Below are positions 3,767 to 16,863 of a DNA stretch of 20,000 nucleotides, one piece after another (within the stretch, counting starts at the first letter, position 1; each line of letters opens with the position of its first letter). This stretch comes from Spirochaetales bacterium (GTDB lineage: Bacteria; Spirochaetota; Spirochaetia; Treponematales; UBA12059). Under the pieces are notes generated by a model. The model ran no database searches. It had not been told where the DNA came from and worked only from the letters and a program-made list of their open reading frames with translations. The stretch covers positions 54,413-74,412 of the forward strand of contig JAFGJV010000033.1 in assembly GCA_016928955.1 (NCBI GenBank), read 5' to 3'. Both the position numbers and the translations under genes were made by a program.

Positions 3767-3795
3767 TTGCCCAAGAAGGCTTTTTTTCCGATACT
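3767..3795 (+). promoter_or_regulatory. Putative sigma70 promoter for the metK leader
   Basis: TTGCCC (3767-3772)-17 nt-GATACT (3790-3795). It would start transcription near 3802, just upstream of the riboswitch. Confidence 0.45.
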
Positions 3796-3825
3796 GGGTA
3801 GGTGCCCTGGCTCACCAGCCTGGAC

Positions 3826-3903
3826 ACGCCGCCGATTTATACCGAATTGCGGGCGGGTTGCGCGGGCTTATGCCCGACGCAAGGAAACCAGCTAAAAGGG
3901 AGG
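3826..3903 (+). ncRNA. SAM-II class riboswitch aptamer with an inserted hairpin (long-loop variant)
   Basis: Element order: P1 CCGC (3829-3832), CGATTT (3833-3838), ATACCGAA, TTGC (3847-3850), GG, P1' GCGG (3853-3856), inserted hairpin TTGCGCGGGC-TTAT-GCCCGACGCAA (3858-3882), GGAAACCA, GCTAAA (3891-3896), AGGG. This follows the SAM-II pattern (YGAUUU...CC...UUGC..P1'...GCUAAA..GGG) and lies upstream of metK. Confidence 0.85.
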
Positions 3904-4009
3904 GCGCCCTGGCTCCTCGCGGCGTCTCGCTCATCCTCCCGACAGCATGTTCCACGCTCCCCGTTGTCCAGTCGTGCGGAACTATATCCACGCATCACGG
4001 GAGGATAGT

Positions 4010-5176
4010 ATGAAAGACCAACGGTATCTGTTCACCTCGGAATCCGTCGGGGAGGGACATCCGGACAAGCTGTGCGACCAGGTATCTGACGCGGTGTTGG
4101 ACGCCTGCCTTGCCGAGGATCCGGAGAGCCACGTAGCCTGCGAAACCTTCGCCACAACGGGCATGGTCCTGGTCGGCGGCGAAATCACCACCAATACCTA
4201 CGTGGACATTCAAACGCTCGTCCGCGACGTCGTCAGGGACATCGGCTACACCAACCCGGACTACGGCCTGGATTTCGAGTCCATGGCCATACTCAACACC
4301 ATCCACTCCCAGTCGCCGGACATCAACCAGGGCGTGGTCGGCCAGGGGCTCAAGGAGTACACGGGCCAGCAAGGCGCAGGCGACCAGGGCATGATGTTCG
4401 GCTTTGCCTGCACGGAGACGCCCGAATTGATGCCGGCGCCCATCCATTACGCCCACGCCCTTTTGCTCAGGGCCACCGAGCTCCGCAAGGGCAAGGTGCT
4501 TCCCTGGCTCCGCCCCGACGCCAAAAGCCAGGTAACGCTGGAATACGAGGGGCACAAGCCGGTGCGGGCTGACGCGGTGGTCGTGTCGCACCAGCACGAC
4601 CCTGACGTGCCGTATGAACGCATCAAGGAAGCGGTCATAGAGGAAATCATCCGCCCGGTGCTGGAGCCCACGGGCCTTCTGACGGCAGACACCAAGTATT
4701 TTGTCAATCCGACCGGCCGCTTTGTCATAGGCGGCCCCATGGGCGACACGGGGCTCACCGGACGAAAAATAATCGTCGACACCTACGGTGGCATGGGCCG
4801 CCACGGCGGCGGTGCGTTCTCGGGCAAGGATCCGTCCAAGGTCGACAGGTCCGCAGCCTACATGGCGCGCTATGTTGCCAAGAACGTGGTAGCCGCGGGT
4901 CTTGCCGAACGCTGTGAGGTGGAGCTTGCTTACGCAATTGGCGTGCCATTCCCGGTGTCCATCATGGTTGACACGTTTGATACGGGCAAGGAACCGGAGC
5001 ATCGCATCATAGAAGCCATCCGGAAGGTATTTGACCTGAGCCCCGCGGGCATCGTCCGCACGCTCAGACTCAAGGCTCCCATTTACCGCAAAACCGCCGC
5101 GTACGGTCACTTTGGCCGGGACGGCTTCTCGTGGGAAGCGACCGACAAGGCTAAGGAACTGATGGCCGCTATCTAA
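4010..5176 (+). CDS. metK: S-adenosylmethionine synthetase
   Basis: Motifs [73 protein letters not shown] at 3999-4004 precedes ATG 4010. Confidence 0.98.
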
Positions 5177-7374: not shown

Positions 7375-9918
7375 TTACTCTTCGGTATCGCTCGGAGCTG
7401 CGCTGGTTTGTTCCTCGGTACCTGCCTCCGTCCCAGTAGCGTCGCGCAAATTCGGCTCAGCCTCTAGGCTTGCTCCCGCCGGACTGTCGCCCTCTTCCTC
7501 CCGGGCTATACGATCCATGCCAACCACAAAATCGGGCGCGTCTATGTTGACTATCCGGACTCCCTTGGCCGTTTTACCGCACAGCCGGACACCTTCGGCC
7601 TTGATCTTCAGGGTTTTGCCCAGGCTGGTCATGATCACCACATCGTCGCTTTCACGTATGGATATGGCGCATACCAGGTCGCCGTTCTCTGGATCGTAGA
7701 TGCGCTGTCCGCCGGTACCACGCCCGTGTTCGGAGAAGTTGTCGTAGTCAGTGCGCTTGCCATAGCCCGTTTCGCTGATCAACAGCATCTGTTCGTTCTC
7801 GGCTACTCGGAGCATGGCGCACAGTTCGTCCTCGGCTACCTTCAGGCTGATACCCCTGACGCCTCGGCTTCCCCTGCCCATAACCCGTACGGCTTCTTCT
7901 TTGATGCGAAGGGCCTGGCCGCGCTTGGTGATCAAGACCACCTCGTTCGAACCGCTGGTCTTGCACGCCGATACCAGCCGGTCGTTTTCATCCAGATGGA
8001 TGGCTATGATGCCCCTGGCCTTGGCGTTGACAAATTCCTTGGTCGCCACCTTTTTCACAACACCGCGCAAGGTACCAAGCATCAGGAAGACGTCGTCGGT
8101 AAAGCCCTTGATGTCAACGATGGTGGTGATTTCCTCGTCCGGGCCAATGGCCAGAAGGCTCTTGATATGGGCACCGCGCGCGGCCTTGCTGGCCTCCGGG
8201 ATTTCATGCACCTTTTGCCAGTACGCCTTGCCTGCGCTGGTGATGAACATCAGGTAGTCATGGGTATTGGCGATGAATATCTGCTCTATGAAATCATCCT
8301 CGAGCAAGGCCGCCGAATTGGATCCCTTGCCTCCCCTGCCCTGGTTCTTGTAGGCGCTGGTGGCAACGCGTTTGATGAAGCCCTTGTTCGATATGAGGAT
8401 GACCATTTCCTCGCGCTTGATCAAATCCTCTATATTGATAGCCTCAACCTCGTCATGGACGATTTCCGTCCGCCTGGGATCGCCGTATTTATCGGCGATG
8501 ACCCTGGTCTCTTCCTTTATCAATGCCAGGATCTTGGGCGGGTTGGCCAGCAGATCCTTGTAGTAGGCGATCTTGGCGCGGATTTCTTCCAACTCTGCGC
8601 GAAGCTTCTCTATTTCAAGGCTGGTAAGGCGACCCAGACGCATGTCGACGATGGCCTGAGCCTGTATCTCGCTCAGGGCAAAACGCTCCATTAGGGCTAT
8701 CTTGGCGGCGTCCACGTTGGCCGACGCCTTGATAATGCGCACTACCTCGTCGATATTCTCGATGGCTATGACCAAGCCTTCCAAGATGTGGGCGCGTTCC
8801 TCCGCCTTGCGAAGCTCGAAGCGCGTCCTCCTTGTGACCACATCCACCCGGTGGTCGACAAAGCACTTGATCAGGTCTTTCAGGGACAGGAGCTTGGGCC
8901 GGCCCCCTACCAGGGCCAGGTTGATGACGCCGAAGGTAGACTGGAGCGGCGTGTGCGCGAACAGGCGGTTGAGGACCAGCTTGGCCACGGCGCCGCGCTT
9001 CAGTTCGATCACCACGCGCATGCCCTCGCGGTCTGACTCGTCGCGTACGTCCGAGGCCCCGTCCACCACCTTGTCGCGCATCAGCTCGGCTATCTTGACG
9101 ATCAGGTTGGCCTTGTTGACGGTATAGGGAATCTCCGTAAAGACGATCTGTTCCCTGCCGCCTTTCAGCGTCTCTATGCTGAACTTGCCGCGGACGGTCA
9201 GCTTGCCTTTTCCGTTTATATACGCTTCCCGTATGCCCCGTTTGCCAAAAATAATGCCGCCGGTCGGGAAATCCGGACCGATCACATACTTCATCAGTCC
9301 GTCTATGCTGATGTCCGGGTTGTCAATGTAGGCCGCAATGGCATCCGTCACCTCGCCAAGATTATGGGGAGCCATGTTGGTGGCCATGCCCACGGCGATG
9401 CCCGACGACCCATTGACCAGGAGATTCGGGAAGGACGCAGGCAGCACGACGGGTTCCCGCAGGCTCTCGTCGTAGTTGGGCACAAAGTCCACGGTTTCCT
9501 TGTCCAAGTCCGCGAGCATTTCGTCGCCCAGCTTGGACAGCTTGGCTTCCGTATAGCGGCTGGCGGCTGGCGGGTCACCATCCACCGAGCCGAAATTGCC
9601 CTGCCCCTGTACCAGGGGATAGCGCAGGCTGAAATCCTGGGCCATGCGCACCAACGCGTCGTACAGCGACAGGTCACCGTGCGGATGGTACTTACCCATG
9701 GCGTCACCGGTTATACGGGCGCTTTTTTTTGTTGCGGCGCTGGGCTTCAGGCCCAGTTCGTCCATGGCGAACAAAAGGCGCCTGTGTACGGGTTTGAGGC
9801 CATCCCGGGCATCGGGCAAGGCGCGGGCCACGATGACGCTCATGGCGTAGTTCAGATACGCCGTCTTTACTTCTTCTTCTATCGGGACAGGGATTATCTT
9901 GCCGGTCAGTTCTGCCAT
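7375..9918 (-). CDS. gyrA: DNA gyrase subunit A
   Basis: Motifs [21 protein letters not shown], catalytic [15 protein letters not shown]. The GyrA-box QGRGGKG distinguishes it from ParC. Acidic C-terminal tail. Confidence 0.97.
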
Positions 9919-9919
9919 G

Positions 9920-11887
<1,968 letters not shown>

Positions 11888-11922
11888 TTACGGTCGAGAA
11901 CGGGCCTTCCGCGTGAAGCTGC

Positions 11923-11951
11923 AGTATATCCTTGACGCCCAGAAAAGTAAA
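11923..11951 (-). promoter_or_regulatory. Putative sigma70 promoter for gyrB-gyrA
   Basis: Minus strand TTTACT-17 nt-TATACT, about 95 nt upstream of the gyrB ATG. Confidence 0.55.
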
Positions 11952-11993
11952 GAACACGCCACTATATAGGAAAGTTCTCGTTTGTCTTTTCAA

Positions 11994-12238
11994 TGTGGAT
12001 AACGTGTGGAAAAAATACAATTTCCTTTCCTGTAAAGGAATAAGGACACGTATAGTATATTCCCTATTTATTCTGCGTGTAGCAACAAGGGATTTATTTT
12101 ATTATTTAGTAACAATTTATTGGTTTCATGCATGTTTTGGACTCTTTTGATGAAACATATACCCTCTATGGCGGAAAAACGAAGAGTGCTATACTCTCCG
12201 AATATTCTGCTGGAAGTCTGTGGATAACTTGTGGGAAG
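11994..12238. promoter_or_regulatory. DnaA-box cluster upstream of dnaA (oriC sub-region 1 / dnaA autoregulation)
   Basis: TGTGGATAA 11994-12002, TGTGGAAAA 12005-12013, TGTGGATAA 12219-12227 and degenerate TGTGGGAAG 12230-12238, arranged as two tandem pairs with an 11-bp period. AT-rich tract at about 12050-12130. Confidence 0.85.
12187..12195 (+). promoter_or_regulatory. Putative extended -10 promoter of dnaA
   Basis: TGCTATACT (TGn-TATACT), with the DnaA-box pair 12219-12238 just downstream, as expected for autorepression. Confidence 0.5.
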
Positions 12239-12309
12239 CCGCGCGGGGACATCCGTAAGGCGCCTGCTGTACTTGATCGAGACACTGGCAAACACGGAGA
12301 AACGACCCT

Positions 12310-13680
12310 ATGAGCGAATGGGATTACAGCCTGTTTTGGAACGAAGCGCTGAGCCAGTTCAGCAAGGAACTCAGCGAACAGGAATTCTCCATGTGGTTCA
12401 ACATAAGCTACGATTCTTCCCAACAGGATACCATCAGGGTTCGGGTACCTTCATCGTTCTACCGTGACCATCTGGACAAGGCCTACCGCCCCGCCATTGA
12501 AGCCAAGCTTTTCGATCTGTCGGGCAAGCGGCTGAAGGTGGAATTTGTCATCGTCAAACCGAACGAGCATGCCCAGCCGAAACCCGCCGCGCAGACCGCC
12601 AAACCGAGCGCCAAGCCCGCCCAGGAAACGCCAAAAACCCAGCACCCCCAGCTTCAGCCTGAGCACAATTTTGAAAACTACGTGATTGCAGAAAACAACG
12701 CTTTTGCCGCCAATGCGGCCATGGCTATATCATCAAACCCGGGCATGGCCTACAATCCTTTCCTGATATACGGAGGCGTTGGCCTGGGCAAAACCCACCT
12801 GATGCAGGCCATAGGCAACCGCGCGTACGCCCTGAACCCAAAACTGAAAATCATCTGCATTACCTCAGAAAATTTTTCCAACGACTTTGTCAGCGCCATC
12901 ACCAACCAGACCATGCCGGCTTTCAAGAACCGCTACCGCTCGGCGGACATGCTCCTGATAGACGACATCCATTTCTTTGAGAAAAAAGAGGGCTTCCAGG
13001 ACGAGGTCTTCCACACCTTCAACGCCCTCTACGAATCCAAAAAGCAGATGGTATTCACCAGCGACAGGCCGGCTTCCGAACTCAAAAACCTGTCAGAACG
13101 CCTCCGCAGCCGCTTTGAACGCGGCCTCAACGTGGATCTGTTGCCGCCAAACTATGAAACCAGGCTGGCCATCTTACGGCGTAAAATGGAACATACAAAA
13201 ATAAAAGTTCCTGACGATGTACTCGACGTCATATCCCACAACATATCCACAAACGTAAGGGATCTTGAGGCGGCGCTTTTGAAACTGACGGCCTACGCCG
13301 AGCTGGTGGGCATAGACATAACCATGGAAATAGCCCAGCAACAGCTGAGGGACGTATTCAGCCAATCCAGGCACGGCAACGTGACTATTGACCACATCAT
13401 CAGGACGGTGGCCGAGCAGTTCAAGGTGACCAGCAACGACCTCAAAGGAAAAAAACGAACCAAAACCATTGTCTTTCCCCGTCAGGTCGCCATGTACATT
13501 GCCAGGGAGATCACCGAGTACTCAACCACCGAGCTTGGTTTGGAATTCGGTGGCCGTGACCACACCACCGTCATGCACTCCTGCCAGAAAATTGACGAAC
13601 GCCTCCGTACCGATCCGGCCCTGGATGTGACCCTCCAAAAACTCATTCAGACTATCAAGCAAGCCAGTATTAAAAACTGA
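12310..13680 (+). CDS. dnaA: Chromosomal replication initiator DnaA
   Basis: Motifs YNPFLIYGGVGLGKTHL, LLIDDIHF, FHTFNAL, RLRSRF, NVRDLEAAL, PRQVAMY, FGGRDHTTVMH. Confidence 0.98.
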   Translation: MSEWDYSLFWNEALSQFSKELSEQEFSMWFNISYDSSQQDTIRVRVPSSFYRDHLDKAYRPAIEAKLFDLSGKRLKVEFVIVKPNEHAQPKPAAQTAKPSAKPAQETPKTQHPQLQPEHNFENYVIAENNAFAANAAMAISSNPGMAYNPFLIYGGVGLGKTHLMQAIGNRAYALNPKLKIICITSENFSNDFVSAITNQTMPAFKNRYRSADMLLIDDIHFFEKKEGFQDEVFHTFNALYESKKQMVFTSDRPASELKNLSERLRSRFERGLNVDLLPPNYETRLAILRRKMEHTKIKVPDDVLDVISHNISTNVRDLEAALLKLTAYAELVGIDITMEIAQQQLRDVFSQSRHGNVTIDHIIRTVAEQFKVTSNDLKGKKRTKTIVFPRQVAMYIAREITEYSTTELGLEFGGRDHTTVMHSCQKIDERLRTDPALDVTLQKLIQTIKQASIKN

Positions 13681-13870
13681 AGGCTCAAAGCCATTTTTGA
13701 AGTCAAGTAGCCTCCAACAGGGTGATGAAGCAGAAGGCATTGCGTTTTCCATTATACTGCTCATACCCTTTGGTTTTGAGGTTTTCTGCTGGTGAAACCT
13801 AAACATCCAGGTTTTCCGCGGGTCATAACCTGCGCATACACCCTGAATATCCGGTGTGTAAGTGACCTAC

Positions 13871-14040
13871 TTGTCCACCGAAACTCCGTTCCTGTGGACA
13901 AAGTGCATAAGCTGGTTCGAAAAAGCAAGGTTTTTTCTACATGCTAAGTTCTTTTACTAAAAGAAAAAAATTGACTTTTACACATTGCGTTATGCTTATT
14001 ATTACTACTACAAATTTATATAAATTTATTTACATAATAG
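13871..14040. other. oriC unwinding region (DnaA boxes, DnaA-trios, AT-rich DUE) between dnaA and dnaN
   Basis: Boxes: TTGTCCACC 13871-13879, TGTGGACAA 13893-13901, AGTGCATAA 13902-13910, TTTTCTACA 13933-13941, TTTTACACA 13976-13984 (fits TTWTNCACA). Then trios TTA TTA TTA CTA CTA at 13996-14010 and an AT-only palindrome AAATTTATATAAATTT at 14012-14027. Confidence 0.82.
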
Positions 14041-14125
14041 AGAAACTCTTTCTAAAGTCGGACGAGTTTTGAAATTGGCTCTAGGGTCTGAAAAAACCAC
14101 CCCTCAACTCTTTGAGGCTTAGTCG

Positions 14126-14155
14126 TTGCGCTGGGCCCCTCCTTCGTGCTATTCT
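14126..14155 (+). promoter_or_regulatory. Putative promoter for dnaN-recF-dciA
   Basis: TTGCGC-18 nt-TATTCT with an extended TG at 14147-14148, 30 nt before the dnaN ATG. Confidence 0.45.
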
Positions 14156-14185
14156 GTCGTGAAACGTGCTAATCCGAGGTTGACC

Positions 14186-15289
14186 ATGAAATTTACCTGC
14201 GACAAAAGCGCCTTCCAGAAGGAAATTTCATTCGCTCAGGAGATCATATCGTCCAAGAGCGCCGTGTCCGTCGTATCCAATGTCTATCTCGAGGCCCAGG
14301 ACAACACACTTCTGATCAGGGCTACTGACATAAAACTTGGCTTTGAGACCAGGATGCCGGTAGAAGTTCAGGAACCGGGCGGAAGCACGGTGTTTTGCGA
14401 CAAGCTCGGCGGAATTCTGGCCAGTATCCCGGACGGCACCATAGAGATTGACCAGAAGGATTCTCGTGTTGTCATCAAGCCGACTTTCAAAAAGGCCCAG
14501 TTCAGCCTCAAGACCATAGCCAGCGACCAGTTTCCCCAGTTGCCTGACATAGACGACAGCGCGTACTTTCCCGTGCCCTCAGCGGACTTCAAGGCCATGA
14601 TAGCCCAGACCGTGTTCGCGGTATCCGATGACGAGACCAGGTATTTCATGAACGGTGTATACCTGGAACGGGCCGAAGACGGTCTTGTTATGGTGGCAAC
14701 GGATGGAAGGCGCCTTGCGTTTTACAAAAAGGCCCTGACCGATTCGCTTCCCCTGTTCAAGAGCGTCATTGTTCCGCCCAAGGTGCTGTCCCTCATACTC
14801 AAGCGCTGTCCGGACGAAGGTCAGATATTTCTGGCGATCAACGACAAAAACCTCTTTGTAAAATTCGGCATGTACAAAATGAGCACGATTTTGATCGAAG
14901 GCCAGTTCCCGAATTACCAGAAGGTCATACCGGAAAGCCAGCAGTACGAGCTCCGGTTCAAGCGTTCCGAGTTCCTGGAAGCCCTGCGTCGCGTATCAAT
15001 TTTCGTGGAGCAAAAATCCAGAAGGACGTTCTTTTCTCTGGCCCAGGACAAGGTAGTGCTTTCCTCAGAAGAAGGAGATATTGGAACAGCCAGGGAAGAG
15101 TTGTCATGCGCCTATGAGGGTCCGGAGGCGGTAATAGCCATGAATTACCGCTATATAGAGGAACCCCTGCGCTACATGGACAGTGACGACGTAACGCTCA
15201 GGTTCACTGAAACCGGTCGGGCTGTTACGGTGTCTCCGGAACCTGCTGGCGACTATTTCCACGTCCTTATGCCCATGCAGGTTGACTGA
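14186..15289 (+). CDS. dnaN: DNA polymerase III beta sliding clamp
   Basis: Begins MKFTCDK. Motifs FAVSDDETRYFMNG, VATDGRRLA, LIEGQFPNYQKVIP, C-terminal VLMPM. GAGG precedes ATG 14186. Confidence 0.96.
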   Translation: MKFTCDKSAFQKEISFAQEIISSKSAVSVVSNVYLEAQDNTLLIRATDIKLGFETRMPVEVQEPGGSTVFCDKLGGILASIPDGTIEIDQKDSRVVIKPTFKKAQFSLKTIASDQFPQLPDIDDSAYFPVPSADFKAMIAQTVFAVSDDETRYFMNGVYLERAEDGLVMVATDGRRLAFYKKALTDSLPLFKSVIVPPKVLSLILKRCPDEGQIFLAINDKNLFVKFGMYKMSTILIEGQFPNYQKVIPESQQYELRFKRSEFLEALRRVSIFVEQKSRRTFFSLAQDKVVLSSEEGDIGTAREELSCAYEGPEAVIAMNYRYIEEPLRYMDSDDVTLRFTETGRAVTVSPEPAGDYFHVLMPMQVD

Positions 15290-15302
15290 CGGCCCTCCGG
15301 GC

Positions 15303-16394
15303 ATGGCCACTACCTCAATACAGACGGTTTCTTTCCGTAACCTTGAAGATGACACCGTGGACGTTTCGGCGCCCACGGTGTTTCTTGTCGGTGAGAACGG
15401 CCAAGGAAAGTCCAATTTTCTTGACGCGCTGTATACCCTCTCGTACGGCGCGTCGTTCCGGGGCGGCACTGACCTGGAGGCTGCCAAGCTCGGAACAAAG
15501 GCCTGGTCCTTGCGTCGACAGTCTAATGACGATACCGGGCTGGACGACGAACTGGTCGTTGCCTGGGATGAGGGCAAAAAGCTCCTCAAGGAAAACGGTA
15601 AAGCCATTCCGGACAGGAAATACCTGGTCGACAAGACTCCAGCCGTGGTGTTCTGCCACGGGGACATGGAATTTGCCCAGGGCGAGCCGGAGCGCAGGCG
15701 CTTTTTTTTCGACCAAACGGCCGGATTAGTGTCCTTGGCTTATATCGATGCCCTGAGGTCCTACCGCCGGGCGCTCAAGGCAAGGAACGCGGCGCTAAAG
15801 GAAAAAATGCTCGATGTCCTGGATATACTGGATATCCAGCTGGCCACCTACGGGACGGAACTGATAGGCGGGCGCAAGGATCTGATACAAGGCTTTGAGA
15901 ATATGTTCAGCGAACGGTACGAACAAGTATCCAGACTGGGAAGCAAGGTTGGCCTGGAGTATAGGCCGTCATGGCCCGCCGAGTGTTCAAGCGACGAAAT
16001 CAACGACAGGCTCCTGGCATCCCGCGAACGCGAGGTGATGTTTGGAACCACGCTCTCGGGGCCCCATAGAGACCGCTTTGTGTTTATTGACGACCATGGG
16101 GATTTTTCTGCCAGGGCTTCTACGGGCCAGCTGAGGCTTTTGGCCCTTACCTTGAGGATAGTCCAGGCGGAATACTGCTCAGGCATGAGCGGCAAGCTAC
16201 CGCTTCTCCTGCTTGACGACGTTCTTCTGGAATTGGATCCGGAAAAGCGCCGCAGGTTCATGGAAAACCTGCCAGCGGCGCGGAAGGCGGTCTTTACCTT
16301 CCTTCCGGGCGAGCCATACGGGGATTATCGTTCGGCCGACACGGCCGTATACTGGGTGGAACATGGACGACTATCGAATACGGCCGGCGTCTGA
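15303..16394 (+). CDS. recF: DNA replication/repair protein RecF
   Basis: FRNL, Walker A GENGQGKSN, GEPERRRFF, GPHRD, ASTGQ, Walker B LLLLDDVLLELD. Start chosen at ATG 15303. Confidence 0.93.
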   Translation: MATTSIQTVSFRNLEDDTVDVSAPTVFLVGENGQGKSNFLDALYTLSYGASFRGGTDLEAAKLGTKAWSLRRQSNDDTGLDDELVVAWDEGKKLLKENGKAIPDRKYLVDKTPAVVFCHGDMEFAQGEPERRRFFFDQTAGLVSLAYIDALRSYRRALKARNAALKEKMLDVLDILDIQLATYGTELIGGRKDLIQGFENMFSERYEQVSRLGSKVGLEYRPSWPAECSSDEINDRLLASREREVMFGTTLSGPHRDRFVFIDDHGDFSARASTGQLRLLALTLRIVQAEYCSGMSGKLPLLLLDDVLLELDPEKRRRFMENLPAARKAVFTFLPGEPYGDYRSADTAVYWVEHGRLSNTAGV

Positions 16395-16863
16395 CATTCT
16401 CTCCAAAGTCCTTGGTCCCAGCTCCGCGGCCAGGGTGGAGCAATGGGCCGGAGTTTTTTCTGGCTGGTCTCGTGTGGCGGGAGACCAATTGGCTGCCCAC
16501 TCCAAGCCCGTAGACATAAAAAACGGTATTGTCATCGTTGAGGCAGACCACCCAGGCTGGATACAACATCTCCAGTTCCGGCAAGAGCGCATGCTCAGGG
16601 AGCTTGTAAAAACCTACCCCGAACTTGACCTCAAGGGTCTTGCTTTCAGGCTGGCGTCTCGTGATTCGGCATACCCAATACGGGATATCGCTAGGAACGA
16701 CCAAGAAACCGGCGGTTCGGCCGATGTCAACGAGGAACCGGAAGACGACACGACGGTGGACAATCAAGCTTCTGATGAGTTGGCGTCCCGGGACCCAGAA
16801 TTCGCCGCCTTGCTGAAATCCGTGAGCGCCAGCCTCAAGCGGAAAAAACCAAGGGCTTCCTGA
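16363..16863 (+). CDS. dciA: DUF721 / DciA-family replicative helicase loader
   Basis: Located directly after recF (32-nt overlap). Motif W..VAG..LAAHS.P.DIKNG...VEADHPGWIQHL, followed by an acidic disordered linker and a basic C-terminal tail. Confidence 0.8.
   Translation: MDDYRIRPASDILSKVLGPSSAARVEQWAGVFSGWSRVAGDQLAAHSKPVDIKNGIVIVEADHPGWIQHLQFRQERMLRELVKTYPELDLKGLAFRLASRDSAYPIRDIARNDQETGGSADVNEEPEDDTTVDNQASDELASRDPEFAALLKSVSASLKRKKPRAS

Follow-up and report, generated by a model that had tools for sequence, protein, structure and literature searches.

The SAM-II riboswitch family (RF00521) was described by Corbino 2005 (PMC1273637), and the structure of its metX representative is used here as given in PMC3303485. 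Most SAM-II elements are described as transcriptional (PMC6061858), and terminators follow many of them (PMC1273637). A P3 hairpin and a two-base-pair P2a that includes the SD are given as features of SAM-V and of a translational minority of SAM-II (PMC6061858). So far, SAM-II has served as a model of an aptamer that acts as its own expression platform. The first-pass annotation of the locus analyzed here likewise assumed that in characterized translational SAM-II switches the SD lies right beside the start codon. This premise is too narrow, as a SAM-II SD that acts from 74 nt upstream has been published (PMC9373788). That site, in front of S. meliloti metA, has been classed as an activating uRBS (PMC13285730). 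A riboswitch-controlled uORF that works together with Rho is known from the Mbox (PMC12810186). In the spirochaete leader considered below, a SAM-II-type aptamer is again found far from the gene that it would control; its tail is a candidate ribosome-binding site in its own right.

The aptamer and its surroundings

The window, i.e. the whole stretch of 20 000 nucleotides that was analyzed, codes for metK (SAM synthetase, 388 aa; TIGR01034, 613 bits) at 4010..5176 on the forward strand, with the start codon ATG at 4010-4012. An in-frame ATG at 3947 was rejected as the start, since no SD precedes it and the homology begins at 4010. A probable sigma-70-type promoter, read by eye, is located at 3767..3795 (+) and includes a -35 element TTGCCC (3767-3772), a 17-nt spacer and a -10 element GATACT (3790-3795); transcription would then start near 3802. 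A similar layout, TTGNNN-N16-18-GATA(C/G)T, is found in most of the 11 leaders printed. A consensus promoter scan of the window did not report the 3767-3795 promoter. At the putative 5' end of the transcript there is a hairpin of variable sequence (3805-3821), which has a counterpart before P1 in relatives and possibly guards the mRNA 5' end.

Upstream, a cysteate-racemase-family gene (NF052483; 2904-3620, -) is divergent from metK and overlaps glpK (1412-2926, -); in some relatives glpK directly precedes the leader. Downstream, gyrA-gyrB is divergent from dnaA-dnaN-recF-DUF721 (7375-16863). Because this is a replication-origin gene cluster, metK appears to be located near the probable oriC.

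The boundaries of the aptamer (3829..3900, +) were derived from an alignment of 49 homologs. All of its parts lie on the forward strand: P1 (3829-3833/3852-3856), a third strand GAUUU (3834-3838), a pseudoknot in which UUGC (3847-3850) pairs with GCUAA (3891-3895), and P2a, consisting of two base pairs between CC (3842-3843) and GG (3899-3900). P2a uses the first two G residues of the SD in the aptamer tail. Based on folding and on its direct SD role in relatives, we consider this tail, GGGAGGG (3898..3904, +), an upstream SD (GGAGG, 3899-3903). Three alternative partners are available to it: P2a, the anti-SD and the ribosome. Between P1 and the 3' strand, folding of homologs revealed a variable, P3-like hairpin (3858..3882, +), and all 26 long aptamers fold an inserted hairpin at this place despite their differing sequences. 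The P3 of SAM-V presumably sits in the same loop.

All the SAM-pocket residues are present in the window: U10, U11, U12, U20, U21, G22, U44, A45, A46 and A47 (numbering from PMC3303485) were mapped to U3836-3838, U3847, U3848, G3849, U3893 and A3894-3896. Over the 49 homologs, 91% of the alignment cells of P1 and the H-type pseudoknot P2 are paired, although most of the columns are fixed by the search pattern and covariation is thin (two pairs). Outside that pattern, P1 of leaders L311 and L312 has changed from C-G to U-A, and the CC/GG pairs of P2a are present in 47-48 of the 49 homologs. Four other aptamers (L012, L049, L105 and L168) carry a natural U10-to-G replacement in the pocket (GAGUU for GAUUU) while keeping U44, a change that could alter affinity or specificity.

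An Rfam search of the window gave no riboswitch match, and RF00521 was absent even at an E-value of 10. Among 11 spirochaete loci, four short-loop homologs scored 24.5-30 bits with RF00521, under its gathering threshold of 36 bits; of three loci that are not of the spirochaete type, one scored 41.6 and another 30.9. The RF01826 (SAM-V) covariance model matched neither the window nor any of 14 loci tested, yet both SAM-V features, the P3 hairpin (3858-3882) and a two-base-pair P2a holding the SD, are present according to the criteria of PMC6061858. Judged by sequence, the window element is a SAM-II-type variant and not a member of RF00521, and we infer that it binds SAM.

Related leaders and their upstream frames

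A script search of the window's own genome found a single copy of the aptamer motif, the one in the window. We started from 30 metK loci of this genome and its relatives, 11 of which have the motif upstream. An exact-pattern scan of a genome collection returned 77 loci, many of them titled Spirochaetota or Treponematales, and a family search found the element in 31 of 42 genomes. Together with a metagenome scan these searches produced 57 distinct leaders, of which 56 precede metK or ahcY and were retained; a tandem element from a non-spirochaete record (L090) was dropped. Eight stretches upstream of ahcY from further genomes included four with the aptamer and four without it, bringing the total to 60 spirochaete-type leaders, all before metK or ahcY. 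In most spirochaetes searched the element was not found (a phylum-wide pattern search detected it in 3 of 401 genomes), and an order-wide search at two mismatches returned mostly noise, as controls matched too. The metagenome scan revealed chiefly another subtype: 93 of 114 hits have a terminator-like run (by a crude regular expression) and two have a tail GGAG followed by a start codon.

The dropped record, titled Enterobacteriaceae, contains two tandem SAM-II-type aptamers from about position 701, with a terminator-like hairpin after the first. SAM-II-like motifs also occur just before four genes without an obvious methionine link (L228:883-1488 (-), L230:1550-2218, L125:1-471 (-) and L145:571-1047), coding for an HTH_11 protein, a MoxR-like AAA protein and two proteins without a Pfam match. 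These motifs may be either chance matches or instances of SAM control over other functions.

In 35 of the 60 leaders (33 of the 56 plus two more) the tail SD directly starts metK or ahcY. In the remaining 25, termed here long-distance leaders, it is not the SD of the main gene. The window belongs to the latter type. Five bases behind its tail GGAGG begins a leader uORF of 34 codons (3909..4013, +), which has a CTG start and a TGA stop that overlaps the metK ATG, and is C-rich and rut-like with a C/G skew of 0.31. In the closest relatives, L003 and L094, an ATG stands at the aligned position. We rejected an assembly error at C3909, as the C is kept in contigs from four of four runs of four studies, two of the runs being marked as ones from which this DNA may derive. 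In folding, this first base of the frame is dispensable. An in-frame ATG at 3870, within the variable loop of the inserted hairpin, shares the uORF frame.

Such frames are a nearly constant property of the long-distance leaders. In 24 of the 25, the tail SD is followed after 4-7 nt by a start codon (14 GTG, 8 ATG, 1 TTG and 1 CTG). All 24 uORFs have 16-41 codons and stop between -22 and +28 nt from the main start, with an ATGA overlap in seven; in 18 of the first 22 the stop is within -15 to +8. The sole exception, L021, has neither a uORF start nor the predicted relay described below. In shuffled sequences a start codon is expected at 0.04-0.24 per leader (0.33-0.37 for L311 and L312) and a suitably placed stop at 0.25-0.58 per group. 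The combined probabilities of 1e-9 and 7e-5 are overstated, because the -22 to +28 range was derived from the data, the groups were drawn by spacer similarity and kin are not independent. Leaders L311 and L312, fetched after the idea had been noted, have both the uORF and the predicted relay, even if their individual odds are weak.

Stop codons are swapped in place (TGA/TAA/TAG in L004/L005/L084, TAG/TAA in L106/L242), and start codons also interchange in place among relatives. Within the window's group the frames have 34, 27 and 36 codons and all end in ATGA; of 14 gene pairs with such an overlap that were tested elsewhere, 13 were coupled (PMC6728339). The uORF peptide has no Pfam match, and a conserved peptide function is unsupported, the peptides of different groups being unrelated by eye. 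Eight leaders have a uORF before an intact ahcY. In five other leaders that start ahcY directly (L050, L061, L082, L086 and L095), the protein has a C-rich N-terminal extension of about 12-15 codons without a second start, which resembles an in-frame fusion of a uORF to AhcY. We also observed a small hairpin (3899-3920 in the window, and present in most leaders) that sequesters the start codon together with the 3' half of the tail SD; its predicted stability is mostly -4 to -14 kcal/mol in the uORF and direct-ahcY leaders, and it is weak in most direct-metK leaders.

Predicted pairing of the anti-SD with two ribosome-binding sites

The first-pass annotation had interpreted the leader as a relay. 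Without SAM, the aptamer tail would capture an anti-SD and leave metK open; with SAM, the pseudoknot would occupy the tail and the freed anti-SD would block the metK SD. The three elements are indeed at the claimed sites, namely the tail GGGAGGG at 3898-3904, the anti-SD ATCCTCCCG at 3933..3941 (+) and the metK SD region CGGGAGGAT at 3998..4006 (+; GGAGG at 4000-4004). The 9-nt complementarity between the latter two is exact, and the metK ATG is about 110 nt from the aptamer. The 9-bp helix between anti-SD and metK SD exceeds chance expectation, since of 150 shuffled spacers about 3% gave one as good or better. As a control we used 387 SD-bearing genes with 130 free bases upstream, taken from this one genome with a crude gene caller: one has an exact 9-nt anti-SD, and that one is possibly metK itself. 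The assembly yielded no 16S 3' end against which the SDs could be matched.

The claim that the tail can pair with the same anti-SD holds in that a 7-bp helix exists, but on its own this helix is not unusual (p=0.26, shuffles). It is automatic, because the tail and the metK SD both read GGGAGG. The pair next to CCUCCC is G-C in the window and U-A in L003 and L094, so that the flank co-varies with the metK SD and not with the tail. Elsewhere, the pairing of the anti-SD extends past the common core to bases that are specific to the tail (11 bp in L106/L242, 8 bp in L069/L072 and in L078/L096), which suggests selection for tail capture in those leaders.

The overall stability of 3800-4030 folded without constraints provides no evidence, since it is no better than that of shuffles (z -1.05). 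In the free RNA the states with the anti-SD on the tail and on the metK SD are at most 0.7 kcal/mol apart. In the growing RNA the tail:anti-SD helix forms first, with a head start of about 60 nt, and has a probability of 0.82-1.0 until the metK SD is complete. Once the pseudoknot is mimicked by constraints (its own energy is outside the model, and locking costs 8.2 kcal/mol), the anti-SD is on the metK SD with a probability of about 1.0, and the cost of opening the metK site rises from 6.1 to 12.4 kcal/mol. Shuffled spacers give a free/bound difference of 1.3 +/- 1.8 kcal/mol, and 6 of 300 reach 6.3; closure of the bound state alone is not unusual (38 of 300).

Constrained folding with and without the pseudoknot therefore supports the relay proposed for the window. 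The mutations that had been proposed behave in folding as expected: with the anti-SD made unpairable the site is always open (5.7/5.5 kcal/mol), and with tail positions 3901-3904 made unpairable it is always shut (12.2/13.3 kcal/mol). However, 3901-3904 are also part of the uORF SD, and therefore the tail mutation cannot separate the relay from translational coupling.

Extension to orthologous leaders gave a divided result. A relay of at least 2.8 kcal/mol is predicted for 11 of the 25 long-distance leaders, including the closest relatives L003 and L094 (4.3 and 5.2 kcal/mol) as well as L242 and L312, whereas in the other 14, among them L004, the difference is -0.9 to 1.4 kcal/mol. Thus, the relay reading stands in folding for the window insofar as two mutually exclusive helices are tipped by the pseudoknot mimic, but it is incomplete as an account, since the tail itself is a ribosome-binding site with a uORF.

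Proposed routes to metK expression, their origin and known systems

On balance, we slightly favor a SAM-sensing translational OFF switch that acts at a distance through one anti-SD and two ribosome sites, with the relay as the main route in this genome. According to this model, a single anti-SD cannot block both sites when SAM is low. If it is on the tail, metK would be started directly (the relay); if it is on the metK SD, a ribosome would enter at the tail and, by translating the uORF, unwind the hairpin before starting again on metK (coupling). High SAM would close both routes, with the tail held by the pseudoknot and the metK SD by the anti-SD; the untranslated C-rich spacer may then also load Rho. 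In this genome, metK is probably switched on chiefly by the RNA relay, because decay has left the uORF with a CUG start that lies inside a hairpin. In many relatives the main ON route is probably coupling. It is possible, if rather doubtful, that the shared anti-SD makes the ribosome relay and the RNA relay interchangeable ON routes closed jointly by SAM, with the window lineage (AUG to CUG) in the middle of a handover to RNA only and sister lineages having collapsed the platform by a deletion between the two SDs.

We regard it as unlikely that coupling alone operates in the window, i.e. that the anti-SD hairpin always shuts the metK SD and metK is reached through the tail SD, the CUG, the uORF and an ATGA restart, the CUG lowering output. 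The uORF is better kept than the relay (24 versus 11 of the 25 leaders), the window frame is intact and ends in ATGA, the anti-SD of this group co-varies with the flank of the metK SD rather than with the tail, and the ppe2 B12 switch is a direct precedent (PMC11260477). In that same precedent, however, an AUG-to-CUG change nearly abolished expression (PMC11260477), and CUG starts in E. coli reach 1-2% of AUG (10.1101/063800). Moreover, the upstream site is hard to open (about 10 kcal/mol), and in the free ensemble the tail has a pairing level of about 90% or higher. GC-rich frames are also often open by chance (0.51 for this leader).

Even less probable, in our estimate, is that Rho provides the main output, with the uORF shielding a rut site until SAM stops uORF translation, whereupon Rho would terminate transcription either ahead of metK or inside it. 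Rut sites are C-rich, G-low stretches of about 80 nt (PMC5499598), and precedents exist in thiM (PMC5499598) and the Mbox uORF (PMC12810186). Of the 25 spacers, 19 were examined, and every one of these is C-rich and G-poor, with skews of 0.27-0.60; the 387 upstream regions of this genome average 0.013 +/- 0.127 and 10 of them reach 0.27, a control limited to one genome and a crude gene caller. A rho gene is present, and no intrinsic terminator was found between the aptamer and metK. On the other hand, C-richness could reflect avoidance of SD-like or aptamer-pairing G runs, and Rho leaves the anti-SD and the stops at the main start unexplained. In addition, rut sites are unstructured, whereas the window spacer is largely paired in the bound state. 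As a further layer that acts when the uORF is untranslated, Rho is nevertheless suggested by the C-rich spacers.

Very improbable, to our mind, is a standby site of the S. meliloti metA kind, where the tail SD would recruit 30S for a start at the distant metK AUG and the uORF would stay untranslated. It has the published SAM-II example with the SD 74 nt before the AUG used (PMC9373788), and the start behind the tail is weak in the window and absent in L021; yet a strong SD of its own precedes metK, in the free RNA the tail is for the most part paired, and relatives show the selection on uORF start, frame and stop that a standby site does not predict. Equally improbable is a scar without regulatory meaning, a remnant of lost ahcY with pairings as by-products of two SDs in a C-rich stretch: neither this genome nor most of the family's genomes with an aptamer-metK layout yielded ahcY, the junctions of uORF and metK look like those of ahcY and metK, and the tail helix alone is not unusual, but uORFs also precede intact ahcY in eight leaders, the aptamer core is intact, the switch energy is above that of 294 of 300 shuffles, and start and stop codons swap yet keep their place.

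Returning to the favored switch with one anti-SD and two ribosome sites, its uORF could have been inherited from an ahcY deletion: relatives carry aptamer-(uORF)-ahcY-metK, the junctions are alike as noted above, and this genome, 99% complete, yielded no ahcY. All six genomes of genus g11 (e.g. G010:C51:52563-53771) contain a divergent AdoHcyase-like ORF of about 420 aa, with a PF05221 match that is weak and in two pieces. The direct and uORF layouts are mixed with one another in a quick, unrooted MetK tree (23 of its 65 inner branches are open), where the direct leaders L002 and L035 fall inside the window's group with modest support. Behind its tail, L035 has the bases found at the main RBS of L094, which is what loss of the sequence between the two SDs would produce. 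Such a deletion may be the origin of the direct layout of L035, and the order of events is tentative.

If the model is correct, this clade has a compact pseudoknot that controls a start about 100 nt away. The direct, uORF-coupled, relay and fused N-terminal extension layouts form a natural series on a near-constant aptamer, in which the shares of RNA switching, coupling and Rho lend themselves to simple reporter tests. The hosts are uncultured sludge spirochaetes, in which a SAM-sensing RNA appears to switch off the gene that makes SAM. About 60 SAM-II-type leaders are added from a phylum without a report in the literature searched, the window and the 11 spirochaete loci tested being below the Rfam cut-off. 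In that literature we found no report of the spirochaete element or of an anti-SD common to a riboswitch-gated uORF site and a main site; supplementary alignments could list spirochaete SAM-II copies. Each part has a precedent (SAM-II at a distance, gated uORF coupling, anti-anti-SD), and their combination did not turn up in the literature searched.

With SAM-II (RF00521) the element shares P1 and the pseudoknot, the core residues and SAM-cycle genes downstream, and with the translational metX subtype also the SD in a two-base-pair P2a. It differs in its spirochaete hosts, an optional inserted hairpin, scores below the Rfam cut-off in the window and the spirochaete loci tested, and, for 25 of 60 spirochaete-type leaders, a hidden SD other than that of the regulated gene. 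SAM-V (RF01826; PMC6061858) has in common the extra P3 hairpin, the two-base-pair P2a with the SD and a translational OFF logic, but RF01826 gives no match and the sequence is nearer to RF00521. S. meliloti metA SAM-II (PMC9373788) likewise has a tail SD with an upstream start and the real start far downstream. Its AUG1, however, is in frame and dispensable with a terminator between, and the searched text of that report has no anti-SD wording; in the window the frame is that of a separate uORF, and metK is preceded by an SD of its own and an anti-SD.

The M. tuberculosis ppe2 B12 riboswitch (PMC11260477) is similar in its hidden uORF SD and a stop that overlaps the main start (AUGA), and acts there by termination-reinitiation. 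A uORF of this type, with riboswitch-controlled SD and start and a stop overlapping or abutting the main start, is found in 24 of the 25 long-distance leaders, the window having only a CUG. The ppe2 switch belongs to another aptamer class and phylum, and an anti-SD common to the uORF and main sites is not described in the covered parts of that paper (PMC11260477). Finally, in anti-anti-SD platforms (the metE B12 switch, PMC11260477; TPP, FMN and btuB) the ligand also frees an anti-SD that blocks the SD of the gene, but in the window the anti-anti-SD is itself both an SD and the 3' strand of the pseudoknot.
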